Shown here in pieces: positions 9,447-60,667 of a stretch of 64,000 nucleotides of DNA. Origin of the DNA: Candidatus Latescibacterota bacterium. GTDB lineage: Bacteria > Latescibacterota > UBA2968 > SICM01. The position numbers and the translations under genes are program-made. Positions within the stretch are counted from its first letter, which is position 1. The number at the start of each line of letters is the position of its first letter. A model generated the notes under the pieces. That model was not told where the DNA came from. It worked only from the letters and a program-made list of their open reading frames with translations, and ran no database searches. Where the stretch lies: NCBI GenBank assembly GCA_965217865.1, contig CBDCJO010000002.1:2976001-3040000 (forward strand), in the 5' to 3' direction.

Positions 9447-10749
9447 AACGCTCGAGGACGACTCGCTTGGGTCAAAAAGAGAAAAAGCCCGAATACGGGC
9501 TTTTGGACAGGGTAGCACCTAAACTTCCAGGGTAAAGCCGGGGCGAACGAGTGCCCCAAGGTTATCCTCGATAATAACGCTCATCGTTCGATCTGAAGAC
9601 CGTTCTATATGTCAACACACGAGACCCGGTCCCTGGGACGTTATCTCGTTTTGGAGACTTTTCCGCGTGAACCCCGGTCCATGAACGGTTTGGATACCGG
9701 TCCCCAGGCCTCCCCACACGACACTGCTGTTTTCCGGACTGTCGATTGTCAAAGGCTTTGACCGAATGGCCAGGTATGATGGCCGAATCTTCTCCCATTT
9801 GGCGGCCTGGGCCTCTCGGGAAGCCGAGGCTTTTTCTTTAAGAAGACTCAGCATAGAAATGATTCCCTCCCTTGTCTTGATTTCCCTCATGGAGAGGACT
9901 TCAAATATCTCTCTGGGTGAGAGTTCGTAGGCATCCTTGCCGCGGATATTGAAACCCTTTCCAGTCAGGTAATTTACGAGCGACTCGCGCTTCAAGTTCT
10001 GTGCAACTCGTTCGTCGTCGACTCCGAAGGCGTCGACGACATCTTCTTTGCTCCGATCATTGACCAGTTCATTGAGTGTTTCCCCTGATTCCCGCATCAC
10101 CTTCCAGGGTGACCACTAACTTCCTCCAGAAGCGGCGATTCGGTCGACTGTTTCCCGGAGTACGACCCTTGTTCGAGCGAGTCGTTGCTCCCTGGAGGAT
10201 GGGGCAGCGGCGTCCTGGCGGGCTCGCTCAAAATCCTCGAGTTCGGTTTCGCGGATGACGGTTTCGTCGAGAGACTCGGGCATGGGTTCGATTTCCATCT
10301 CGGGTTTTGCAGCTTCTGGTTCAACCGGCGGGGTTTCCATGGCCATATCCGGCTCCAGGATCTCCGGGGGTTCTGATGTCAGGAATTCAGGCATTGGAAA
10401 AACGGAGGTCAAATCACCGGTCCTGTTCAACTTCTCTTTTGCCCAGATCGCCCAGATACAGATGCCGACCAGGAAGAGGGCTAAAACGCCTAAAAGCATC
10501 CTCTTTTTCCTGGGCTTTCTCGGGATTAACCTTCCCTCTTCGGCCAATCTCTTTTGTGCCCCGCGGGCAAGGTCGGGGGATCTCCAGATGGGAGAAGATC
10601 CTTTTCGGGTTGGTTCACTGAGGATCTCCGCGGCGGTTGGATCGGATTCCACCCGGCTCCTTTCGGATCTCGTACCCGTCGCCCCGACTGCCCCGGCGGC
10701 GACCATGCTCGCGATTTCCGCCCTTTTTTCGTCCCCAAAGGATGGTTCT

Positions 10750-36980: not shown

Positions 36981-38123
36981 CTATACCACCTCATCGTAGA
37001 TCGCCTCCAGCCGTTCCCCCTGTTGGACCGCGTCGTGATGTTCCTCCACTTGGCTGCGGCCTCCCGCCACAAGACGATTTCGGAGTTCCTGATCCCCAAG
37101 CAGGGCGTCGAGCCGCTCTGCGAGTCCGTCCACGTCCCGTTCCGGCGCCAGAAGGGCACAGCTCCCGTCCGGGGCCACGGACGGAATGTCCGCGTGAAGG
37201 GTCGAGACCACGGGGAGGCCGGAGGCCATCGACTCGATGATCGTGACCGGCGCCCCCCCCTCGGTGTCGCCGTCGGACGCGGTGATGCTGGGATGGAGCA
37301 GGACGTGGCTGCCAAGGAGGTGTTTGACATATTCCGCGAAAGGAAGGAATCCCAGGAAGCTTGTGCGGTCATGAAGGCCAAGTTCCCGGACAACGGCTTC
37401 GATTTCGGGCTTCCGGGGGCCATCGCCGATGATGTGAAGCCTTGCGGAGGGATATTGTTGGGCGATCCGGTGGAAAGCCCGCACCCCATCAGGGAAGCCT
37501 TTCTTCTCCCTGAAGGCCCCGCACATCAGAACGACAGGGTTGTCCCCCGGATTCCGATCCGGTTTGAAGGGGATGGCCGACAGATCGACGCCGAGCTTCT
37601 GCACGCGGACCTTCTCCGCGGGACATCCGATCCCGACCAGGCGTTCCGCGAGGTGAGGGCCTTCGGCCAGAAAGAGTGTCCCCTCCGCAAACAACCGTTC
37701 GAATCGTCCGCCCCACAATGGTTCCCTGGGCAGGGCCGATACATCCAGGCCATAGAAGGTGGTCACCATGGGGAGGTCCGCCTTCCTTTGGGCCATCAGG
37801 CAGCGATATCCCTCCTGCCCGAAGTGGGCGTGGATCAGGGATGCCTCTTCACGATGGAGGATGGGCGCATAGAAGACGTACTGGCCCGTCAGCCGACGAA
37901 CGACCCGGTGGACGAAATGTTTTCCCCCCGCCCAATGCGCCACGTCGTGGAGGGTTTCGACCGGGAACAGGTCCTTGTTTCGGGCTTCCTGTGTGATGAC
38001 GACAGGACGGTACCGACGGTGGTGGCGTATCTGTCCGTGCACCCAGTTCATGGTCAGCGGGAGAAAGGGGGATGCGCAATGGGCGACAATCCCGGGAGAT
38101 TCATTCGGGGGAAGGGGCTGCAT
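36981..38123 (-). CDS. Glycosyltransferase family 4 (WcaL-like)
   Basis: HAHFG, EKKG, DGDTEGGAPV.I.ESMASGLPVVST.H. Confidence 0.9.
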   Translation of the reverse strand: MQPLPPNESPGIVAHCASPFLPLTMNWVHGQIRHHRRYRPVVITQEARNKDLFPVETLHDVAHWAGGKHFVHRVVRRLTGQYVFYAPILHREEASLIHAHFGQEGYRCLMAQRKADLPMVTTFYGLDVSALPREPLWGGRFERLFAEGTLFLAEGPHLAERLVGIGCPAEKVRVQKLGVDLSAIPFKPDRNPGDNPVVLMCGAFREKKGFPDGVRAFHRIAQQYPSARLHIIGDGPRKPEIEAVVRELGLHDRTSFLGFLPFAEYVKHLLGSHVLLHPSITASDGDTEGGAPVTIIESMASGLPVVSTLHADIPSVAPDGSCALLAPERDVDGLAERLDALLGDQELRNRLVAGGRSQVEEHHDAVQQGERLEAIYDEVV

Positions 38124-38128
38124 CGGTT

Positions 38129-38347
38129 TTAAGGGACCGGATCGCATCCCGAGCCACCCCAGGGGTGACAGCGGAGCAGGCGGCGAATGGAGAGGTAGGC
38201 GCCCCGGGATGCGCCGTGGCGCCGGAGGGCTTCAAGGGTGTAGTTCGAGCAGGTGGGCAGGAACCGGCATCGCGGCAGGGTGTAGGGGGATATGGCGGAG
38301 GTGTAGAACCTGACGATGCAGGAGAAGAGGTAAGCGGCCGGGCCCAT
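38129..38347 (-). CDS. yidD: Membrane protein insertion efficiency factor
   Basis: Y..AISP..PRCRF.PTCS.Y..EAL..HG, RCHPW..G.DPVP. Confidence 0.9.
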
Positions 38348-39080: not shown

Positions 39081-40601
39081 TTAAGACCCCGTCCTGCTGA
39101 ACGTGACGGTCCAGATGGGTCCGCAGTCAATGAAGGTGTATTTGAGGTTCAGCTGACCCGCGATCGATCGGATCTGTCTCCTGGTGTAGAAATAGACCGG
39201 GCAATTTTGACGCTTTAGCCAGAGATAGCGGATCCAGGTCTGCAAGAAGGTATACTTCTTCGGGAATGTGGCCACGATCTTATCTCCGGCGAGATGGACG
39301 GCCTTTTCCAAATAGGCGGGCACTTCCGTGTGTTTCACATAGTCGAACACGCCGATCATTAGCAGATAATCGAATGTACCGTTTGTCCTGTATTTCAGGA
39401 AGTCCTCGTTCAGCCACCTGATTTTTCCGTTGGGGTCGCGGGCGTTTTTTTGTGACATGGAAATCATGCGGACCGAGAAGTCCATCCCGGTTACATTGGC
39501 TCCCTTATCGGCGAAAAAAATGGAATAGATCCCCGACCCGCATCCCACGTCCAGGATGGTCTTTCCCCTGACGTCACCGAGAATATCCGCGGCGGCACTA
39601 AAACGACGAACCAACCCGGGTTTTCTGAACAGGATGTGTCCGAGGTTCTGGAAAAAGTTTCTTTCCCCTTTTCCATAAAAGCCATCGAAACGGTGAGCGC
39701 ACGCATCAAAGTAGGTCCTTACCCGATCCTCCTGAACGCCAAGTCGCCCTCTTCCCACCTTCCATCGATTTATCACGTCGATCATCGGCTCGAATTCAAA
39801 TTCCCGTAAGAGCCCTTCGATTTTCTGGAGGGCTTTCAAGATGCCGGAGTAGGTGATCAGGTAATTTTTCAGCCCGATCGCGGTTATCCTGGGGGTCTTC
39901 GCGTGAATCTCCCACGGATGGAAGTAGATCACGAAGGGCCTTTTCCGATTGACCTTCCTGAGGAGATATTTCAACAAACCAAAGGGGAGGATCCGGAGGT
40001 AGAACCCGCCGCTGATCGGGATTCTGACGCGACCCCAATTGAAAACCGTGAGGGGAAATTCCAGGATCTCAGATGCCCCCTCCTCCCTGGTCAAGTCATC
40101 GAGGTTCGGGGGGTAGATGGAACATGGGGCGCGGGGCAGTCCATAAAGAAAATTTTTGGCGGGAAAAATACTCGAGTCGTAGAGATAGCCGTTGTCGACC
40201 AGACGCCCCATCGCGTATCGGGTCCGGTTATCCATCGAAAAAGTCGGGGCCCTGAATCCCTTTATATTCACGCGGGGCCCCAGAATTTCATCGATTAATC
40301 GCTCGAAGGTCTTCAGTTCGAGGTCGAAATCGGGATCCCCCAATTCCCAGAGGGGCTTATGGGTCATCCCGTGCGAGGCGATTTCGTGGCCTCCCACGTG
40401 GATCGATTTGATTAAATCCGGGTGTTTTCGGGCGATGTCTCCCAGGACGAAGAACGTGGCCTTGACCCGATATTTCTCCAGGAGATCGAGTATGGTCCGC
40501 GTCGAATCTTCGATCTGTGACTCGGGATTTTCGGGCAGGTGTCTTCTGACGAGTTCGGGATGGTACCAGTCTTCCAGATCGATGGTCAATGCGTTCTTCA
40601 T
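39081..40601 (-). CDS. Polysaccharide deacetylase (DUF3473-type) fused to a class I SAM methyltransferase
   Basis: TIDLEDW, ATFFVLG, HEIASHG..H, FRAP, GGFYLR, YFHPWE; then ILDVGCGSG. Confidence 0.85.
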   Translation of the reverse strand: MKNALTIDLEDWYHPELVRRHLPENPESQIEDSTRTILDLLEKYRVKATFFVLGDIARKHPDLIKSIHVGGHEIASHGMTHKPLWELGDPDFDLELKTFERLIDEILGPRVNIKGFRAPTFSMDNRTRYAMGRLVDNGYLYDSSIFPAKNFLYGLPRAPCSIYPPNLDDLTREEGASEILEFPLTVFNWGRVRIPISGGFYLRILPFGLLKYLLRKVNRKRPFVIYFHPWEIHAKTPRITAIGLKNYLITYSGILKALQKIEGLLREFEFEPMIDVINRWKVGRGRLGVQEDRVRTYFDACAHRFDGFYGKGERNFFQNLGHILFRKPGLVRRFSAAADILGDVRGKTILDVGCGSGIYSIFFADKGANVTGMDFSVRMISMSQKNARDPNGKIRWLNEDFLKYRTNGTFDYLLMIGVFDYVKHTEVPAYLEKAVHLAGDKIVATFPKKYTFLQTWIRYLWLKRQNCPVYFYTRRQIRSIAGQLNLKYTFIDCGPIWTVTFSRTGS

Positions 40602-50756: not shown

Positions 50757-52358
50757 TTAATTCCCGAACGTGTGTTTAAGAATTTGAAAAATCCTCTTGA
50801 TGAACCATCTCCGGGGGTGTTCCTGTGTGTGGTGTGCGACCACGGCATTGGATGGGAAAACGGTCTTGAAGATGAAACGGGCTTTGTCCATAGGCCCGTG
50901 TCTCAAGGCGAGGTGGACGAAATAGCTCAACCCGGAGCGGGTGCGGCCTTTCGCCAGGCGGCGCAGGAAGAGGCGCTCGCCGGATGTCAGATGCGCAGGT
51001 TTGAGGGCGGCGAGGGTTTCATCGGGAACAGGGGCGCCCATCTGATCTCGAACGACCCGTAGGGGGAGATAGGCCATCCGGTCCAGGCGGAATCTCCGCG
51101 CCGTCTCCAGGACCCGCTCCCAGTCTTCGGCTCCCATGCCGTCCCCGATCGCCCAGGCCAGGTCTACGACCTGGAGGGGCTTCCACATCGAGTGGGCTGG
51201 CCTCATGGCGTGTTCGCACAGATAGACGATGAGGTGATGTGGGGCGACGCGCAGGGTTTCCGTCCCGTCTACAGACAAGGGAAGCGCTTCTTCCCAGATT
51301 TCGTCCATACCCACAAAATCTCGATATGCATCGGTCGGGACGGAGGTGTTCACCAAATGCCAGTGGAGGTGTATGGACGGTGAAAGGAGATCCGCCTTCC
51401 GATAATCCAGGGTGGAGAGGGATGTGGATTGATGGGGGTCGATCCCTCCGATTGGTCCGTCAATCGGGAGATAGCCCAGATCGTTCAGGACACGGTCCGC
51501 GGCACGGAGATGCCCAGGACTGACGAGGAGGTCCACGTCGTTCATCGGGCGGGTCGCGGGGCTCGGGTAGACGGTCTCGGCCAAGGCGACACCTTTCAGG
51601 ACCATCGTGGAGATCCCTGCGTCGGTGATGGTTTTCAGGACCTCTCCGAAGGCGTTGATCATGACGACATACCGCGCGGCGGAACCATAGTAGGCGCGTG
51701 AAAGGGCCCGGGACACTTCGAGCGGAAGTTCCGTCCCGGAACGCTGGAATTGAAAATAGAGGAGCGGGGCCAGGTCCCGGGTTACGGCGACGGAGACCAG
51801 GTCTTCCCATTCGGGTTCGGATTCGGGGAGAAGCCCGTCCACACGGACGGACGGTCCGCAGAGTGAAACGACCCGCAGGAGGTCCCCCCCGTCCCGGTCG
51901 AGCCGCTCGCGGATCGCAGTGCCCCATCCGCCCAGGGTCCTGGAGATTCGCCTGCCGATCGGGATACGCGCTCCCGGCCAGCGCATGGCACGCTGTGCTC
52001 CGCGGTCGAGGCGGACCCGCCTGCCGCGTCGTTCCAGGATGTCGATCCGGCCGAGCAGGTCGGACTCGGGGACCTCCTCCTCCTCCAGGCACTCGGGCGA
52101 ATCCCCCTGGATTTTATAGGCCCCACGTCTCCTCCCCTTCACCCGATGGACGCACGGCCCCCCGGGCGAACAATAGAGGACCACGTCGCCGGGTCCGGGT
52201 TTCTCGGCACTCAGGGGATCGACGATCAGGATGTCTCCGGACCGGATGAAGGGCTCCATGCTGGTCCCGGTCGCCCGGAATCGGAAGGGCTGGCGTCGAT
52301 GATTGAGTGTGGTCTGAGCCAGGTCGAGGAATTCGGTTGAAGAAGGAATTATGAGCAT
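50757..52358 (-). CDS. S24/S26-type peptidase fused to NTP_transf_5-type nucleotidyltransferase
   Basis: N-terminal GTSMEP..GD, VHRV, QGD; C-terminal VLKG..LA..VY....RPMNDVDLLV, LHW; start chosen at MLIIPSS. Confidence 0.85.
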   Translation of the reverse strand: MLIIPSSTEFLDLAQTTLNHRRQPFRFRATGTSMEPFIRSGDILIVDPLSAEKPGPGDVVLYCSPGGPCVHRVKGRRRGAYKIQGDSPECLEEEEVPESDLLGRIDILERRGRRVRLDRGAQRAMRWPGARIPIGRRISRTLGGWGTAIRERLDRDGGDLLRVVSLCGPSVRVDGLLPESEPEWEDLVSVAVTRDLAPLLYFQFQRSGTELPLEVSRALSRAYYGSAARYVVMINAFGEVLKTITDAGISTMVLKGVALAETVYPSPATRPMNDVDLLVSPGHLRAADRVLNDLGYLPIDGPIGGIDPHQSTSLSTLDYRKADLLSPSIHLHWHLVNTSVPTDAYRDFVGMDEIWEEALPLSVDGTETLRVAPHHLIVYLCEHAMRPAHSMWKPLQVVDLAWAIGDGMGAEDWERVLETARRFRLDRMAYLPLRVVRDQMGAPVPDETLAALKPAHLTSGERLFLRRLAKGRTRSGLSYFVHLALRHGPMDKARFIFKTVFPSNAVVAHHTQEHPRRWFIKRIFQILKHTFGN

Positions 52359-52359
52359 A

Positions 52360-52870
52360 GAGAAGGGAAATGGAAAATAGAAAGTGTAAAATGGAAAAGT
52401 GTAAGACCCTTCCACCCATCCCCACCGGAATACAGAATACAGAAGTCAGAAGAAGACCGGGAATCAACTTAGTCGTCAGACATGAATCGTGAGACGGCAA
52501 AAGGCAGTAGCAGTGGCAGGAAAAGCAAAGGCAGCCCGAGCGTCAGGGGTCAGAGGAAATTGAATATTGACGATTGAAAGACCGTGAAACGTGAGACAAA
52601 AAGCAGTAGCAGTGGCAGGAAAAAGCACAGGCACCCCCAGTTTCAGGTGTCGGAGATCAGGGGCCAGAGAAATTGAAGATTGACGATTGAAAATTGAAAG
52701 ATTGAAGATCAAAGAGTCCATAAGCACATAAGAAAATTCTGCGTTTTTCAAATATTCAATTCTCCGATATTCAATATTGATGGGGGTCAGAGAAATTGAA
52801 GATTGAGATCGAAGCGAGATCCATATGGACTTTAGAAAGTCCTGGGTTGTTCCAATATTCAATGAGGTTG
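52360..52870. repeat. Mosaic heptamer-repeat insert inside the RiPP cassette
   Basis: Two GCAGTAGCAGTGGCAGGAAAAGC modules and two AGAGAAATTGAAGATTGA..CCATA..AGAAA..AATATTCAAT modules. Confidence 0.8.
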
Positions 52871-52874
52871 TGGG

Positions 52875-53165
52875 TCAGGGGTCGTTGACGGGCAAAACGG
52901 CGCGGACGGTCTCCAGGCGGGTGATGAAATCCCGGACGTCGGTCTCGGCCTGTTCGGGTCCGACTTCGAATCGCTCGACGATCCCGTCCATGATATCCCG
53001 GACGGTTTTCTCTCCGTCCAGCAGGTTCCAGATGGCGGCTCCGACTTCGTTCAGGGTGAAGACGCTCCCCTTCGGTCCGTCGATGGCGCGAACCGGGACC
53101 AAAATCATCTCGCCCGCGATCTCCCGGAAGATGAAGTCGGGATTTCGGGCATAGCGTGCAATCAC
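52875..53165 (-). CDS. PqqD-family RiPP recognition element (RRE)
   Basis: FREIAGE.ILVP, FTLNEVG..IW.LLDG, F.V..EQA..DV..F; GTG start overlaps the precursor stop. Confidence 0.92.
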   Translation of the reverse strand: MIARYARNPDFIFREIAGEMILVPVRAIDGPKGSVFTLNEVGAAIWNLLDGEKTVRDIMDGIVERFEVGPEQAETDVRDFITRLETVRAVLPVNDP

Positions 53166-53353
53166 GAAGTTGCCGCCGAGTTGGTACCCTTTGATTTAGT
53201 GACCTGTTTGCACTTCTTTTTGCAAAAGCCGGTTTCTTGGTTTCCATCCTTTGCGCTGGTGGCGTTACTCTTGCAAGGGTGCAGGACGGCCTGGCTGGTC
53301 TCAAGGAGGACTTCGTGGATCTCGGGCCGACTGTAATGCATACGCTCAGCCAT
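53162..53353 (-). CDS. Putative RiPP precursor peptide (63 aa)
   Basis: AAAGGAG RBS 7 nt before ATG; MAERMHYSRPEIHEVLLETSQAVLHPCKSNATSAKDGNQETGFCKKKCKQVTKSKGTNSAATS; overlaps both neighbouring genes. Confidence 0.8.
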   Translation of the reverse strand: MAERMHYSRPEIHEVLLETSQAVLHPCKSNATSAKDGNQETGFCKKKCKQVTKSKGTNSAATS

Positions 53354-54256
53354 GTTCGATCTCCTTTGCGATGTGGTCGGTAATTTCCGGCGAGTTGACA
53401 AAACCGAGCTTTTCAGTCCAGTCCTGCGCGAGGTCGCCGATCCTGAAGAGTGCCGCACAGCGGGCGTCGTCGTTCCACACGGGGAGGAAGGTCTGGGACA
53501 GGAGCCCTGCGAAGTTTAAAGAGGCGGGTTGTTGACAGGTCCTGTTTCGCCTGTCGTGATGAATGATGTAGATCCGGCTCAGCGGGACGCCCCCCGGGGC
53601 GACCGCGAAAGCGGAACCGGGCCAGGGGGTGCCGTAGACCGTCCACGCCCCGTCCCGCTTTCGAAGGATGGTGTGTTCGTCCCCGATGACAATCGCGTCC
53701 GGGCGATTCGTTGCGAAGAGGCGGGAGAGTGTGCTCTTGCCCGTCCCCGAGGCGCCCGCAAAGACGATGCCGCGGCCCCCCAGGTCAAAGGCAGCGGCAT
53801 GAAAAGCATCAGGCCGTCCTCTGTCCCCAGCCTGTCGGCCAGGAGGATGCGGAGGAGGGGCTCCAGGATCGTTGCCAGGTTCCGACGCCGGGGACGCTTG
53901 CTTTGTGGGCGACCGAACAGATCTCGCTGTCCCTCGGTTCCGAGCCTGATCACCCCTTCCTTCAAACCCGCGTCCATCTCGGCCACGCGGTTGGGACGGG
54001 CGGTGAGCGGGTCGCAGATCTCAAATAACCGCTGACCGTTCTCGCTGTGAAGACGCCAGTGGCCGGGCATCTCGAAGATGGGTTTCTCAGGCCGGGGGGA
54101 AATCTCTCCGGTCTCGACGACCCGAAGGCGGATATCTTCCGAAGGGAAGCCGCCAATGAATCGTCCGTAGAGACCAGGGTTCCGTTCGAGGCGGACGCCT
54201 TCGAGGTGGAGCTTCACGCCGATGTCCGCGACCCGCAAGTCCAGTGTGTTTTTCAA
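53346..54256 (-). CDS. HPr-kinase-related P-loop protein, frameshifted at an A4 run (53802-53805)
   Basis: Adding one T on - gives GLMLFHAAAFDLGGRGIVFAGASGTGKST..IGDE..VYGTPW, open to TGA at 53346; TTG start uncertain. Confidence 0.75.
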
Positions 54257-54291
54257 GGTGAATGCCCGGAGATAGAGCCCATTAGTTGTCG

Positions 54292-55424
54292 TTAATTCGG
54301 GAGGCCGATCTGAAGCAGGCCGCCCGTCATTGCCGGCGCCCCGAAGGCCTCCGCCCTGAGATGGGTGATTTGACAGAGATAATCGACCGGCTCCTCCTGG
54401 TCGCCGTGCTCCAGGAGGGAGGTGCCGGGGCAGGTGCTGCAGGCGGAGATCAACTCGCAGGAGCGGCAGCGGGTCGGCCGTTCGCGCTTCGTTTCGCGAA
54501 GCCTGGGAAAATATTCGTAGAATCCCTCCTTGAAGCTTTTTTCCCTGAGGTTGTGTCCGTTGTGCCGAGAGATGAGACACATCTCCAGGTCCCCGTAGGG
54601 GTCGACCACGAAGTTGGTTGTCCCGGCCCCGCAGAGATAGAGGTTGTCCGTGTCCGCAATGCCCAAGTTTTCGGGCAGGAACTCTTCGCGCCAGGCCTCG
54701 GCCTTCTCCGGATCGGCCATCTCTAACGCCACCACATCCTCCGGGGACATCCGTGTCCCGCAGGGCTTGTGGGAACAGTCGATGCGGGGGTGGATCTCCG
54801 GGTCGTACTTGAAATCCACTTCGAGCTCGCGCGCCATTTGTTCCATCTCCGGGACCTCGTGCTGATTGAGGCCGAGCCCCACGGTCTTCAGGCTCATCTG
54901 AATATTCCGTTCCCGCAGGAGCCGGATTCCCCGGAGGCATTTTTTGTAAGCACCGGGTACCCCGGTAACCTTTTCATAGGTCTCCTCAGAGGCCCCGTAA
55001 AGGGTGATCTCGATCTTGAAGGGGGGGTCTCGGCCAGGAAATCCACGGTGTCGGGCGTGAGCATGCAGCCGTTGGTGAACAGGGTGATCAGGAGTCCGCT
55101 CCGCTTGGCGTAGAGGTAGATGTCCCGAAAATCTCGGCGCAGGAGAGGCTCCCCCCCGGTGATGAGAAGAAAGAGGCATCCCTCCACCACCATAGCGTCG
55201 ATGACACGGCAGCACTCCTCGTAGGTCAGCTCCCGGTTACGGGCGTCAGGATCGTTGGCCGGGAGGTTGACATAGCAGTGGACGCACGCCAGGTTGCACC
55301 GGTGCGTCAGTTCCAGGGTCCCGTCGAGCGGGAACCGTTCCTCATCCGCTTTTCCGTGGACGGCCGCGCTGAAGTCGAGGTAGCGACGATGGGGAATCGT
55401 CACCTCTTCCTGTTCTGACGTCAT
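54292..55424 (-). CDS. Radical SAM/SPASM protein, frameshifted at a G7 run (55021-55027)
   Basis: CNLACVHC, TGGEP, FTNG; one extra C on - joins ETPP to FKIEITLYG; SPASM C.AG..VDPYG....C and CRSCELISACSTCPG..C; GAGGAGG RBS. Confidence 0.88.
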
Positions 55425-55498: not shown

Positions 55499-56764
55499 TC
55501 ATTTCTTATCCGGGAGATCGTCTTCGGAGATCACGTCGGTGATGTGCAGGATCCGGGTTTCTCGCAGATTGATGGTCTGGATGTTGCGGACTTTCTTTTC
55601 CTGAGAATCGTAGAGGATCTCGACGGAGGGCCTGAGGGGATGGGATTCGTAGGTCTCGACGACCCTCCCTACGGCGCCTGAGTTGAGCTTGACGTAGCTT
55701 TTCAGCGGGAAGGCGGACAGCTTCTGCAGGAGGACCTTGAGGACCTGCTGGCTGAACGTGCCCCGCTGATTCTGAAGCATAAACCTGACCGCGTCGAAAG
55801 GCAGCATCCCCCGGCGGTCGGGCCTGGACCGGGTAAGCCCTGCGAAGCAGTCGGCCACGGCGATGATCCGAGCGTATTCTTCGATCTGGTCCCCCTTCAG
55901 ACCCCGGGGGTAGCCGCTGCCGTCTTCCCGTTCCTGCTCCTGGTAGGCGACATCCGCGAGCCACTGGTAGTCCTTACCGAGCTTGGACAGGATCTCGTAG
56001 CCGTATTGGGGATGCCGCTGCATCTCCGCCTTCTCCTCGTTGGTCCATTTTCCCTTCGTCAGGATCGACTCGGGGAGTCGGGTCATTCCGATGTCGTGCA
56101 GGAGGGCGGCCAGACCGAGGTCCACCAGGCGATGATCCTCGAAGTTCATTCCCTCACCGATCCGGAGGGCATAGACGCCCACATTGACGGAGTGGGTGAC
56201 CAGGGCCGCGCTAAACCCGGCGTCCTGTTTGGCCTCCTGGGCATAGATCGCCTGCTTGTAAAGCAGGTCTGTCGCCCCCTTCATGCCGATGATTCGGGTC
56301 AGGATGGCCAGGGCAACGTCCACGGAGAGAGTCGTCCCCTGTTTGGCGGAGTTGATAACCCCCCCCACGAAGGAGTAGGCCCGCTGGTAGAGGGCATTCA
56401 CCGCCTCCTCATCCACCTCCGGAGGCTTTTCCGGCTCCGGGGGAGGGGGGGCAGTCTCCGGGGCCTGCGGGGCAGGTGCCCCGGCCGGCTCAGGCGCTGC
56501 GGGGGCCCCACGGGCCCCAATGGGACGGGGTAAGGCGTCTGCGACCTCTGCCCCGCTCGTGTCCAGACGTTCATTGATTCGGCGGACTTGGTCGGCAAGG
56601 GAGACGACCGCTCCCAGCTCATCGTAAATCTGCCGAAGCACGGGAAGATCCCGCATCTGGGGGGAGTCATCCCCGGCTTTGAAGGGCTGAGGGGGCTCCG
56701 GTCGAAGGGGGGCATTGCTGATGGCCGTTTCCCCTTTCCGGACCATGTCTGAAAGGCGTGGCAT
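55499..56764 (-). CDS. HD-GYP domain protein (partly degenerate)
   Basis: HSVNV, LHDIG, HP..G, QEQEREDGSGYP, IIAVAD. Confidence 0.85.
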   Translation of the reverse strand: MPRLSDMVRKGETAISNAPLRPEPPQPFKAGDDSPQMRDLPVLRQIYDELGAVVSLADQVRRINERLDTSGAEVADALPRPIGARGAPAAPEPAGAPAPQAPETAPPPPEPEKPPEVDEEAVNALYQRAYSFVGGVINSAKQGTTLSVDVALAILTRIIGMKGATDLLYKQAIYAQEAKQDAGFSAALVTHSVNVGVYALRIGEGMNFEDHRLVDLGLAALLHDIGMTRLPESILTKGKWTNEEKAEMQRHPQYGYEILSKLGKDYQWLADVAYQEQEREDGSGYPRGLKGDQIEEYARIIAVADCFAGLTRSRPDRRGMLPFDAVRFMLQNQRGTFSQQVLKVLLQKLSAFPLKSYVKLNSGAVGRVVETYESHPLRPSVEILYDSQEKKVRNIQTINLRETRILHITDVISEDDLPDKK

Positions 56765-56771
56765 TCTTGGT

Positions 56772-57575
56772 TTATGATCTCATGACCGCAGCGACGGCCT
56801 TCTGTGCGATCCCTTCATCGATTTCGGTCGCTCCGGAGCTGAAACCGAGCAGGAGGCTCATGTCGCAAACGTTGTTCACGTCCCTGGGAATCCCGTGAGT
56901 GGCACTACAGATTATGGGGAAGGTTTCCGGACTGATGATCTCCTTCTGAAGCCCGGCCTTTTTGAGGCGATAGTGGATATATTTACCGGTTTCCTCCGTA
57001 GAAAGTGGCCCGAGGTGATATTTTATCGCGATGCGCTGTTCGAGTTGGCGGATTTGCCCCACCTTCTCCCGTAGTTCAGGCTGGCCTATCAGGATGAGGG
57101 TCAGGAGGAAACGATCGTTCAGCTGGAAGTTGAGGAGGAGGCGCAATTCTTCGAATGTGTCCTGGTTTTCGATCGCCTGGGCCTCGTCGATCATGATGAC
57201 CGTGTCCTTACCCGCGTTCAAATTCTTGACGACAACGTCATTCAGGGCGTGAAGGAGGTCGAGTTTCGAGGTGGCGTCTGTCTGCTCGCCGAGTTGATAG
57301 AGGATCTCCCGCAAAAAGTCGATGGGAGGAAGGCCTGGATTGGCGACCAATCCGACCTCGAATCGATCTCCGGACAGGTCCTGGACCAGGGTACGGCTCA
57401 GGATCGTCTTGCCACAACCCACCTCTCCTGTGAGCATGGCCGAACCCTTACGGTTGTTCACGGCATAGAACAATCGGATCAGGGCTTCCTGATGCTCCGG
57501 GGAAGGATAGAAGAATCTGGGATCGGGGACGTTCTCAAAGGGGAGTTCCTTCAGGCCCCAGTGCTCTTGATACAC
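56772..57575 (-). CDS. ExeA/GspA-like AAA ATPase
   Basis: Y..HWGL...PF...PDP.F, GEVGCGKT, IDEAQ, LIGQPEL, GIPR..N. Confidence 0.92.
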   Translation of the reverse strand: MYQEHWGLKELPFENVPDPRFFYPSPEHQEALIRLFYAVNNRKGSAMLTGEVGCGKTILSRTLVQDLSGDRFEVGLVANPGLPPIDFLREILYQLGEQTDATSKLDLLHALNDVVVKNLNAGKDTVIMIDEAQAIENQDTFEELRLLLNFQLNDRFLLTLILIGQPELREKVGQIRQLEQRIAIKYHLGPLSTEETGKYIHYRLKKAGLQKEIISPETFPIICSATHGIPRDVNNVCDMSLLLGFSSGATEIDEGIAQKAVAAVMRS

Positions 57576-57875
57576 GCCCGCTCTCCTTTATTGTTTTTAA
57601 AAAAGATCCGTGAATCCTGTTATAATACTTTTTCGACCAGGAATTGTCAAGGCCGGACGACGGCATCGGGTGATGGGTCCTCCTCAAGCCCATAACTGGT
57701 CTTTCAGTCTCGATACATCAGTCAAACTTGCCCAAATATAGACACGAATGAACATTCAGTCAAGAAAAATAAACAATAATAAACTTTTTACTTGATTTTT
57801 GGTCTCATTGTGTTTAAATTAACATACACATCAAAGTATTTAATGCTATTTCATCCACAAAAAATGATCGGCGGG

Positions 57876-58577
57876 ATGAGACTAAAAGAAGCAATCGAGG
57901 ATGAAATCGCCTCTCAGGGGATCTCGGCCATTGATATTTCGAAAGGGAGTGGGGTATCGAAGGCGACCATTTACAATATCTTGAACGGGCTGACCGACGA
58001 CTCCCGCATCCGTCCTTCCACCAAGCGGGCCATCGCTCAGGGATGTGGGCGAGAACTCCTTATCCTCGACGACGGCGGTGTAGAATTTGTCTCGCCCGGG
58101 TCCACTTTGGAAGCCCAGGATGAATTCGCCAACGCGAGTGTCGTCCTGCAATATCTCCCCGGAAGACCCTTTCTGTCCGGCCACTTCTTCCAGGAGCCGT
58201 TCGACTGGCTGCACGATCTGGAGACATCGAGCCGCATCCCGCGCTGCGATGTCGTCAACAGGGTGTTCCAAAAGAACACCGATTTTCTTTCCCTGATCAT
58301 CGAGAATGTGAGTCACGCCAACATCACCGCGTCGCGATTTTCCCTTCGGGTGTCGATCCTCAAGAGCCGGATCCAGAAGAACTTTTCCCTGACCCGAATC
58401 AATCCGATTCCCCCCCTTGGAAAGATCGAAATCACCCTTTTCCTGGCCGAGGCCGACTTCGACTTCGACCTGGAAACCGCACAGGTTGCCCTTCACGATA
58501 TCGATGGCGAACCCCACGTACCGACGTGGGGAGATGAAAACACGGGGATCTACCGATTCAGAAGCTTGCCCAAGTAA
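57876..58577 (+). CDS. XRE/Cro-type HTH protein with unknown C-terminal domain
   Basis: ISAIDISKGSGVSKATIYNILNG HTH; start chosen at MRLKE. Confidence 0.75.
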   Translation: MRLKEAIEDEIASQGISAIDISKGSGVSKATIYNILNGLTDDSRIRPSTKRAIAQGCGRELLILDDGGVEFVSPGSTLEAQDEFANASVVLQYLPGRPFLSGHFFQEPFDWLHDLETSSRIPRCDVVNRVFQKNTDFLSLIIENVSHANITASRFSLRVSILKSRIQKNFSLTRINPIPPLGKIEITLFLAEADFDFDLETAQVALHDIDGEPHVPTWGDENTGIYRFRSLPK

Positions 58578-58654: not shown

Positions 58655-60667
58655 ATGCTTGTCGATGACCTGAGACGGACCAAACGCATCCGTATCCATA
58701 ACGATTCCCCGACCGACGGGGCGCATCATTTCGGTTTCTCGGTCTACGCGGAGACCCTCGCAAAGATCATCGCCGATCGGGCGAACCGGACGCCGTTGAC
58801 CTTGGCGATCAACGGGGCCTGGGGGAGCGGCAAGACAACATTGATGCGGACGATCCGCGAGAAACTGAATCAGATATCGGCCGAGGTGGAGGGGAACGGG
58901 GGAGACGGCATCTTTCGATCCAGTCGATCCGTCTGGTTTAATGCCTGGAAGTACTCTGACCGGGATGCCATCCTGGTCGTGTTAATCGAAGAGATCGTGT
59001 CCCAGATCGCATCCGGCGGCATGCCGGAACAGCGGCTGCAGGGCATGCGTCGGAGCGAGGGTGGAATGGACTGGGCTGGAATCTCCCGGGCCATGGACGA
59101 CCTTGTGGGGAAGACCGGAGTACCTGAGCTCAAACGCTTTCTGGAGAACGATACTGCGATCGTCAAAAATATCCCGCTGCTGCGGGAGTTTGAACACTTT
59201 CTGGATCGGTTGATCAACTGGTGCATCGTTCGGAATCGTGGAAACGGCCCGGAGGAATTCCCGGATGCGACGGGCGTCCTGACCATATTCATCGACGACC
59301 TCGACCGATGCCAGCCGGACCGGGTTTCCCGGGTTCTGGAGACCATCAAACTCTTCCTGGATCGACCCGGCTGCGTATTCGTGATCGGCATGGACAGCGA
59401 GATCGTGGAGAAAGCGGTCAAGGCTCAATATGTGGAGATCGAGGGCTTCGATGAACACGCTTACATGGACAAGATCATCCAGGTGCAGTTCAACCTCCCG
59501 CCCATCCGGGCTGAACACATCCAGTCGTTTATACAGGAGGATCTCATCGGGACGCAGGCAAAAGACAATCCCCTGTCCAGATATCTCGATGTGGTTTCCG
59601 AGGCCGTTCGCCGGAACCCCAGGACGGTCAAGCGGTTTTTGAACACCTTTTCTATCCAGCGAAGCCTGGCCGAGTCTCAGGGATTGCTCAAAAACGGAGG
59701 GATGGACGAAGACCTTCTCGCCAAGTGGATCATTCTCTCTTTCGCTTTCGAGTCGTTCATGCAGCGCGTCCTTCAGAGGCCGCTTCTGTTGCCGGAGATG
59801 CAGGATGCCCTCTCAAGCAGGGATGGAAGCGGGGATCTTTTGATGACCCCCCCGCCCCACCTGCGGGAATTCCTCGAAGACCAGGCCCTCGTCGATATCA
59901 TCCAGCAAGGAAAACCGTTCCCTACGGATGAGGAGGAGCTCGCGATATACATCCACCTGAGCGAGTCGACCCGGCGCAGCAGCCTCTTGGGGAAGGACGG
60001 GGAGGAGGGGGGCGGAGTCTATCGCGCGGAGGAGGGGGCCGCCATGGTTCAGGTGGAGGCCGGACGGTTCCTCATGGGCGAAGCCAAGAAACCCGTTTCG
60101 CTCGAAAGCTTCGAAATCGACGTTACGCCGGTTACACATCGACAGTTCCAGCGGTTCATCGACGACATCGACTATACCCACCTTCCGGACAGCTGGCCGG
60201 AAGGTACCTATCCCCCGGAGAAGGCCGATCACCCGGTGGTCGGCATCTCGCTTCACGACGCGAAGACATATGCCAAATGGGCGGGAAAGCGTCTTCCCAC
60301 CGAAACCGAGTGGGAGAAGGCCGCCCGTGGCCCCAACGGAAGGTTGTTTCCCTGGGGCAACACCTTCAACCGCTATAACTGCAACAACAAAGAGCTCGGC
60401 CTCCACACCACGACCGAGGTTGGCCACTTCCCCAACGGGGCCAGCCTGTACGGATGCTACGACCTGGTCGGCAACGTTTGGGAATGGACGGACACAGACG
60501 TATTTCCGGATAATAACGAAGTCAAAGTGATCCGGGGGGGCTCCTGGTCAAGTCCACGTGAGGGTGTCGTTGCAACCACACGAGCTTACTCCCGTGCGGG
60601 CGAACGTCGGCAAGACCTGGGCTTCCGCTGTTGTCGCAGTTCGAATGAGGATGATTTTGTCGTGTGA
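58655..60667 (+). CDS. KAP-family P-loop NTPase fused to an FGE-sulfatase (SUMF1/CLec) domain
   Basis: GAWGSGKT, WFNAW.Y, FIDDLDRC, KIIQV.F.LP, NPR..KR; RLPTE.EWEKAARG, GNVWEW, RGGSW, GFRC. Confidence 0.9.
   Translation: MLVDDLRRTKRIRIHNDSPTDGAHHFGFSVYAETLAKIIADRANRTPLTLAINGAWGSGKTTLMRTIREKLNQISAEVEGNGGDGIFRSSRSVWFNAWKYSDRDAILVVLIEEIVSQIASGGMPEQRLQGMRRSEGGMDWAGISRAMDDLVGKTGVPELKRFLENDTAIVKNIPLLREFEHFLDRLINWCIVRNRGNGPEEFPDATGVLTIFIDDLDRCQPDRVSRVLETIKLFLDRPGCVFVIGMDSEIVEKAVKAQYVEIEGFDEHAYMDKIIQVQFNLPPIRAEHIQSFIQEDLIGTQAKDNPLSRYLDVVSEAVRRNPRTVKRFLNTFSIQRSLAESQGLLKNGGMDEDLLAKWIILSFAFESFMQRVLQRPLLLPEMQDALSSRDGSGDLLMTPPPHLREFLEDQALVDIIQQGKPFPTDEEELAIYIHLSESTRRSSLLGKDGEEGGGVYRAEEGAAMVQVEAGRFLMGEAKKPVSLESFEIDVTPVTHRQFQRFIDDIDYTHLPDSWPEGTYPPEKADHPVVGISLHDAKTYAKWAGKRLPTETEWEKAARGPNGRLFPWGNTFNRYNCNNKELGLHTTTEVGHFPNGASLYGCYDLVGNVWEWTDTDVFPDNNEVKVIRGGSWSSPREGVVATTRAYSRAGERRQDLGFRCCRSSNEDDFVV

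Follow-up and report, generated by a model that had tools for sequence, protein, structure and literature searches.

This locus raises the question of what is encoded by a short reverse-strand open reading frame lying between a kinase gene and an RRE gene, and what a pathway would make of its product. The window, which is the whole stretch of 64,000 nucleotides from a Candidatus Latescibacterota contig that was analyzed, was translated at 53162-53353(-) and gave 63 residues followed by TGA. The peptide carries YSRPEI at residues 7-12, QAVLHPCK at 21-28 and Cys at 27, 44, and 48, and ends in ..NSAATS, in agreement with the first-pass annotation, which had described a 63-aa precursor with YSRPEI, QAVL-HP-CK, these three Cys, and a terminal Ser. 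Acidic residues are found at positions 3, 11, 14, 18, 36, and 40, and Thr at positions 19, 32, 41, 52, 57, and 62. The start of the gene overlaps the stop of the upstream kinase gene by 8 nt. The start at 53353 had been preferred on the basis of an AAAGGAG ribosome-binding site, and the longer start in the ORF track had been thought probably wrong. Both choices hold. The site is 7 nt before the ATG, and the orthologue in a genome of the same family (G038) starts with MAER at the same Met with a GGAG site in front. The 98-aa form that starts at the GTG at 53458 in the ORF listing was rejected; it would share 113 nt with the kinase gene, the orthologue start disagrees with it, and a protein collection contains the precursor in its 63-aa form. 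Selenocysteine read-through of the TGA was also set aside, as the stops in the family are a mixture of TAA, TAG, and TGA, and this TGA overlaps the GTG start of the downstream RRE gene (GTGA). The two members of the precursor's 90% identity cluster differ from it only in the core. The core had been called rich in Lys, Ser, and Thr. The Lys content is indeed 21.6% here but only 6% in the family cores, and Ser/Thr are at the family level. The Lys richness is a peculiarity of the window peptide, not a family trait. AlphaFold2 modeled the precursor alone with a pLDDT of 60 and a pTM of 0.19, values too low to be informative. The ESM Atlas matches to the precursor fall in clusters with a hypothetical fraction of 0.85 and are treated as leads.

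Table 1. Positions of the precursor gene and its neighbors in the window.
Feature	Position	Strand	Remarks
Precursor peptide gene, 63 aa, intact	53162..53353	(-)	Leader ~1-26 (YSRPEI RRE motif, QAVL), core Cys27-Ser63, three Cys, terminal Ser
AAAGGAG ribosome-binding site	53361..53367	(-)	Upstream of ATG 53353, within the 3' end of the kinase gene
Stand-alone PqqD/RRE, 96 aa, intact	52875..53165	(-)	PF05402 E 1.2e-18; PDB TbiB1 E 3.7e-6
ScmC/HprK-like P-loop kinase (H..GASGTGKST..DE..GTPW)	53346..54280 (start approximate)	(-)	Frameshift near 53803
Radical SAM/SPASM enzyme (CxxxCxxC; seven-Cys SPASM)	54292..55424	(-)	Frameshift near 55027
S24/S26 signal-peptidase-like domain fused to NTP_transf_5 nucleotidyltransferase, intact	50757..52358	(-)	Domain matches
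HD-GYP-type (HD_5) protein	55499..56764	(-)	Upstream of the radical SAM gene
ExeA-like AAA_22 ATPase	56772..57575	(-)	TIGR03015, 234 bits, under the cut-off of 324.5
Sigma-70-like promoter match TTGACA-17-TATTAT (11/12)	57622..57650	(-)	47 nt before the ATPase gene; consensus match only

The 63-aa ORF is a real gene, because it has a syntenic orthologue, a dN/dS of 0.25, and the first rank in its genome by a profile that was built without it. The orthologue in G038 is 56% identical and retains the three Cys and the last Ser. The gene order in G038, one of two genomes of the same family, is the same (ATPase, HD-GYP, radical SAM, kinase, precursor, RRE), and the radical SAM profile matched 6 of 168 genomes of the phylum, counting the genome of the window. 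The dN/dS is 0.16 in the leader and 0.33 in the core, values from one pair and 62 codons that are approximate because the dS of 1.49 is near saturation; three neighboring genes gave a similar 0.23-0.30. The full-length family HMM without the window peptide placed the precursor first among 176,706 stop-to-stop frames of the genome at 24.8 bits (E 2.2e-4), and the runner-up frame scored 11.3 bits. The window precursor was absent from the top rows of the same genome searched with a leader-only HMM, which shows that the leader by itself does not suffice to single out the precursor in a whole genome. A direct homologue search with the window peptide returned itself as the sole match.

Relatives were reached through radical SAM homologues, which led to 21 genome loci and 62 metagenome loci, and the family profile was built from an alignment of the short ORFs adjoining these homologues. 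The first-pass annotation had suggested an HMM from short ORFs beside homologous RREs. The profile recovers a large conserved family; in a set of 1.84 billion it finds, with E<=1e-3, at least 1,401 representatives clustered at 50% identity. The family is uncharacterized and has no Pfam or NCBIfam model. Searches of Pfam and NCBIfam with 15 precursors gave no real family, and neither did searches with 14 more, apart from two rows in which the leader weakly matched a lasso-precursor model below cut-off. The family layout is a YxxP leader, L-x-small-Cys, two further Cys, and a terminal Ser, and the leader consensus is KxYxKPxIxxVxLxxEQAVLxxC. Among the best 150 profile matches, the [YWF]xxPx-hydrophobic motif is present in 146, exactly three Cys in 121, and a C-terminal Ser in 132 (Thr in 8). 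The three Cys and the terminal Ser, picked out from a single peptide at the start, are thus conserved features. The lasso-like, RRE-type character that had been assigned to the leader is likewise borne out by the frequency of the motif and by the adjacent RRE, whose closest PDB entries are the lasso RREs TbiB1 and 9X90. The profile rewards leader, Cys, and terminal Ser features; therefore, the count was repeated with a leader-only model on the 88 loci found by radical SAM. This selection gave 48 different precursors at 39 loci; the last residue is Ser in 43 and Thr in one, and the core Cys number three in 35, two in nine, and four in four. The 14 seeds of the profile originated from the loci used in this count. 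Ser ends 25 of the 28 metagenome-locus rows, one of which is identical to a seed. Terminal Ser also recurs across several separate radical SAM clades and phyla in a quick tree with 28 of 64 branches open. The named hosts include Nitrospirota, Acidobacteriota, Kiritimatiellota/Verrucomicrobiota, and Bdellovibrionota.

The positions around the first Cys are tightly kept. Its distance from the leader Tyr is 20 in 141/145 members, with Ala at -5 in 135, Leu at -3 in 139, and Ala or Gly at -1 in 91. Pro is at -1 in three members, the window peptide among them. At residues 24-27 (53273-53284), the family segment L-[SAGT]-[AG]-C is lipobox-like, and the window and G038 peptides carry Pro before the Cys. 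Several subfamilies were seen. One (L021, L022, L025, L051, L060, and L061) carries two or three radical SAM genes, and its precursors are long-tailed, with DSG-x-R-x-S or similar at the end; the L051 peptide ends in AATS, as the window peptide does. A Kiritimatiellota/Verrucomicrobiota subfamily (L009, L011, L012, L016, L017, and L019) has two core Cys and acidic cores ending in FD[IL]SPS, and is divergent from a very large DUF11/LTD surface-protein gene. One 136-aa family match (P0033) holds two precursor units in one ORF, each with a leader and a Cys core, and is either a tandem precursor or a read-through.

We lean, with modest confidence, toward the reading that the ORF is an intact precursor gene of a widespread radical-SAM/kinase RiPP pathway, that its product is likely a thioether-bridged peptide phosphorylated on the last Ser, and that the pathway is probably dead in this strain. 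In the proposed pathway, the RRE would bind the YxxPxI motif in the leader, as lasso RREs and those of the linear polyphosphorylated peptides (LPP) suggest. The radical SAM/SPASM enzyme would link the core Cys sulfurs to carbons of nearby residues, and the ScmC/HprK-like kinase would add one or more phosphates to Ser63. By analogy with LppS, the S26-type domain would cut the leader between L-x-x and Cys27 with the RRE presenting the leader, and the nucleotidyltransferase domain might conceivably decorate the phosphate further. The earlier proposal that Cys27, Cys44, and Cys48 are bridge donors and Ser63 the kinase target is reasonable as a hypothesis.

The thioether bridges are suggested by the conserved Cys together with the SPASM resemblance of the enzyme. 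Six of the seven SPASM Cys are invariant in an alignment of 13 enzymes. The best PDB match of the SPASM half is 5WGG (E 8e-7), which we take to be the thioether-forming CteB, followed by SkfB and PqqE. It is unlikely, but deserves weight, that the same pathway runs with a radical SAM enzyme that makes C-C bonds or other non-sulfur changes, the Cys being free for a metal or forming one disulfide and a free N-terminal Cys. The enzyme matched none of the curated families at cut-off, and in full-length NCBIfam and PDB comparisons mycofactocin MftC, heme-b synthase, and PqqE score as high as or above the thioether enzymes, all of them far below cut-off. An odd Cys count would fit the binding of a metal, and the Cys2-Cys3 spacing varies from 3 to 10. 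However, the Cys1-Cys2 spacing is narrow (14-15 in 88/128), 43 of 145 cores lack any aromatic or His residue that could serve in C-C coupling, and the order of the SPASM structural matches points to sulfur chemistry. Besides the Cys and the terminal Ser, nothing is conserved in the family cores, and there is no conserved acceptor residue.

Two further assignments concern the cleavage site and the phosphorylated residue. Cleavage near AVL had been proposed earlier. AVL does lie in a conserved region, but the site is better placed just before Cys27, where the fixed Tyr-Cys distance and the Leu at -3 put the predicted cut. Such a cut would fit L-x-[AG] followed by Cys, because LppS recognizes a hydrophobic residue at -3 and a small one at -1; LppS needs S29, H68, and D93, as described in the main text of Popov et al. 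2026 (PMC13381572). Ser33, His71, and Asp86 of the peptidase domain are invariant in 16 aligned sequences. The Pro at -1 in the window peptide is atypical for this cut. The most likely kinase target appears to be the terminal Ser, as several lasso-cluster kinases are reported to phosphorylate a C-terminal Ser (PMC10368454). At loci with a kinase, 39 of 40 leader-selected precursors end in Ser or Thr; the precursor of L055 ends in Asp with a kinase present, and two loci below the leader threshold (L007 and L095) have a kinase match and end in Asn and Tyr. Where a kinase was not detected, five of eight precursors still end in Ser, most of them on short contigs, and two supported kinase-free clades end in Val (L018) and Lys (L023, a more distant candidate). 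This co-occurrence is suggestive only, since the relatives are not independent and few kinase-free loci are complete.

The register of LPP offers a second alternative, in which the cut falls after Ala22 (placing the Tyr at -16 as in LppA), or the phosphate sits on an internal Ser near the core start, and the terminal Ser is kept for another reason. In the main text on LPP, LppA carries its Tyr at -16 and its Pro at -13, is cleaved after Thr-1, and is phosphorylated on Ser3 (PMC13381572), and BsfK is also described as phosphorylating core Ser3, not the end. The conservation of Ala22 (135/145) and the window Pro, which may disfavor the cut before Cys27, speak for this register. Against it, a cut after Ala22 would usually leave a charged or polar residue at -3, a position at which LppS is described as reading a hydrophobic one (PMC13381572). 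The window peptide has Ser at +3 from the Cys, but the family does so in 10/145, which argues against core Ser3 polyphosphorylation as a family rule; LppK phosphorylates core Ser3 and rejects Thr in the published main text (PMC13381572), and the terminal Ser is the residue that is widely kept (132/150). We regard the LPP register as distinctly unlikely.

The surrounding genes bear on how the pathway may be expressed and where it may act. The HD-GYP gene is likely co-transcribed upstream of the radical SAM gene, and the ATPase gene is likely the first of the transcript. The strong sigma-70 match before the ATPase gene suggests one transcript from the ATPase to the RRE. HD-GYP genes also flank the cluster in L094, L026, L042, L092, and L093, and an ExeA-like ATPase is near it in L094, L026, and L042. 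Kinase relatives carry the Pfam ScmC domain (PF27840), and the G038 kinase has its nearest named relative in Candidatus Handelsmanbacteria (87%). A 57% identical orthologue of the peptidase-nucleotidyltransferase fusion is on a separate small G038 contig. Among the flanking genes scanned we detected neither a lasso cyclase nor a B2 peptidase, and no ABC exporter adjoins the cluster in the window; of 18 loci scanned, 5 have ABC genes at their flanks. Genes that are glycosyl-related or for polysaccharide export are present in 8 of these 18 loci (L008, L026, L042, L052, L055, L058, L086, and L095), a count from hand-picked loci with 82 of 123 flanking proteins scanned and without a background control. 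The main text of PMC13381572 also places LPP and paeninodin clusters next to capsule loci, and it describes LppN as having no activity in one test. A bolder extension of the favored reading would be a three-thioether new RiPP class spread over many uncultured phyla, with a C-terminal phosphoserine extended by the nucleotidyltransferase to serve as a primer or anchor for surface polysaccharide, co-regulated with the HD-GYP protein and the ExeA-like ATPase. This extension is speculative, and we give it little credence.

Other features of the region were recorded. A repeat-rich spacer of ~500 nt separates the RRE and peptidase-nucleotidyltransferase genes; it (52310-52790) contains CCTGCCACTGCTACTGC twice and many TCAAT/TCTTC units. 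Its depth is 10-50 times that of the contig, with many joints, which indicates that similar sequence recurs elsewhere. About 10 kb from the cluster, 39081-40601 (-) encodes a polysaccharide deacetylase/DUF3473 fused to a methyltransferase and adjoins a GT1 glycosyltransferase gene (36981-38147). Divergent from the operon and syntenic in G038 are an HTH protein (57792-58577 (+)) and a KAP P-loop NTPase fused to an FGE-sulfatase domain (58655-60667 (+)). A second cluster in the genome was sought and rejected; the search gave a rearranged partial peptidase-nucleotidyltransferase copy, one unrelated PqqD, and one distant kinase-like match only. The partial copy (L003:14162-14797; G000 C2 ~1,028,161-1,028,796) is 93-99% identical, internally deleted, and truncated, and lies beside IS3-like ORFs in a region that is phage- or ICE-like in look. 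In a Nitrospirota locus (L013:8714-8875 and 9934-10152), a cluster of the window's kind stands back to back with a SynChlorMet-like one that has a second RRE, two more radical SAMs, a second kinase, and a Gly/Cys-repeat peptide, so that two YxxP/WxxP pathways adjoin.

In this strain the kinase gene and the radical SAM gene each carry a frameshift, neither of which the first-pass annotation had noted, so that the cluster is probably dead and its peptide probably goes without maturation. The precursor, RRE, and peptidase-nucleotidyltransferase genes are intact; among the genes compared, the frameshifts are confined to the two maturase genes and the other seven are intact. A second radical SAM of the same family was not found in the genome, and G038 has an intact 373-aa orthologue. 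Contigs from two studies cross both break sites with zero gaps: X1 from study P1, and X3 and X8 from two samples of study P2. The assembly may have been made from X1; the study behind X3 and X8 is a different one. In-frame alleles at both sites, reached through indels, are carried by X7, X9, and X15 from three other studies, and a full-length 289-aa kinase relative (P0188) is 96-97% identical to both halves of the window kinase. Broken alleles come from studies P1 and P2 and in-frame ones from P3, P4, and P6, a pattern of strain-level loss within one species group. X7 and X9 also omit 52662-52878. The RNA run X22 and run X14 gave no coverage, a result that bears neither way on expression. Long-read homopolymer or assembly error was rejected as the origin of the breaks, given the zero-gap contigs in three runs of two studies and the in-frame relatives. 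We consider it very unlikely that frameshifting or slippage in transcription at the C7 and T4 runs keeps the cluster active, or that the breaks are consensus errors. Both breaks are in or beside these short homopolymer runs, and the intact genes would be compatible with activity. Nevertheless, recoding would have to occur independently at two sites, T4 is a short run for slippage to act on, relatives ~97-98% identical to the window (X7 and X9) are in frame at both sites, and the zero-gap support includes 151-nt records in X8. A working lipobox in L-x-[AG]-Cys, with Cys27 lipidated on a small membrane-anchored peptide, is barely credible: 71/145 members match what we take to be the strict pattern, [LVI][ASTVI][GAS]C, but there is no hydrophobic h-region, the -15 to -4 segment holds at least one charged residue in 145/145 (mean hydropathy 0.19), and the window peptide has His-Pro at -2/-1.

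A pathway of the kind we favor, with a thioether-bridged and terminally phosphorylated product, would join a phospho-tailoring kit, first characterized in 2026 (LPP), to a radical SAM enzyme. This combination would give a direct test of the still unexplained NTP_transf_5 enzymes and of the vicinity of polysaccharide genes. This strain is the wrong one for cloning, and G038 or the in-frame relatives are preferable; near-identical strains with live and broken alleles make a natural comparison for the role of the peptide. A description of the precursor family was not found in full-text searches of an open-access library, and the LPP supplements were checked for four terms; an earlier description may exist. 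The accessible text of the RRE-Finder report (PMC7470986) counts ~300 lasso-like RREs beside radical SAM enzymes and describes no family there.

The cluster was compared with four known systems. The lasso leader motif, quoted as [Y/W]xxPx[L/V/I/F/A] in the main text of PMC13381572, and a lasso-type stand-alone RRE are both present (YSRPEI; TbiB1 and 9X90). Like the phosphorylated lasso peptides of the paeninodin and Bsf type, as described in PMC10368454, the cluster also has an HprK-like kinase and a nucleotidyltransferase; unlike them, its adjacent genes include neither a lasso cyclase nor a B2 cysteine peptidase. The earlier view of the core as non-lasso is upheld, since a cut before Cys27 would leave His at -2 where lasso peptides have Thr, and the first Asp would be at +10 with neither Asp nor Glu at core positions 7-9. 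The SynChlorMet cassette (TIGR04248-04251, PF27840 ScmC), known from bioinformatics only, shares a PqqD, a ScmC-type kinase, and a radical SAM/SPASM enzyme, and ScmD is the best NCBIfam match of the RRE. However, the scores are all far under the curated cut-offs (ScmD 46/100, ScmC 20/125, ScmE and ScmF 73-76/400), only the broader Pfam ScmC model matches the kinase relatives, and SynChlorMet has two radical SAMs compared to one here. Ranthipeptides and sactipeptides (CteB, SkfB) likewise combine Cys in the core with a radical SAM enzyme whose SPASM domain has seven Cys. Both are present here, the enzyme being broken in this strain and intact in G038, but the RRE is separate rather than fused, a kinase, an S26 peptidase, and a nucleotidyltransferase are added, and the models are below cut-off (StsB 78/625, AlbA 71/850).

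The closest likeness is to LPP (lppA-K-B-S-D-N; Popov et al. 2026, PMC13381572). In its main text, LPP has a YxxP leader, a stand-alone RRE, an HprK-like kinase, a SpI/S26-type leader peptidase with Ser-His-Asp, and an NTP transferase, has no macrolactam cyclase, and often adjoins polysaccharide genes. The same set of SpI-like peptidase, RRE, HprK-like kinase, and NTP transferase is present in the window, with the kinase frameshifted. The LPP leader consensus, YxxPxVLxHQxIxFETxxS, differs from that of the window family, and LPP is described as phosphorylated on Ser3, with an MsbA-like exporter among its core genes and mostly Bacillota hosts, whereas the window family has three Cys, a terminal Ser, a peptidase-nucleotidyltransferase fusion, and other phyla. 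A radical SAM enzyme has no mention in the LPP main text and appears as one column heading in the domain matrix; the combination of an MsbA-like exporter and a linear product without a ring-forming enzyme was not found here, where a radical SAM/SPASM gene is present. On the features compared, the cluster lies outside the lasso peptides, LPP, and SynChlorMet, and would work most like LPP with a radical SAM enzyme. Overall it comes closest to the phosphorylating pathways of LPP and paeninodin, with a radical SAM enzyme added.
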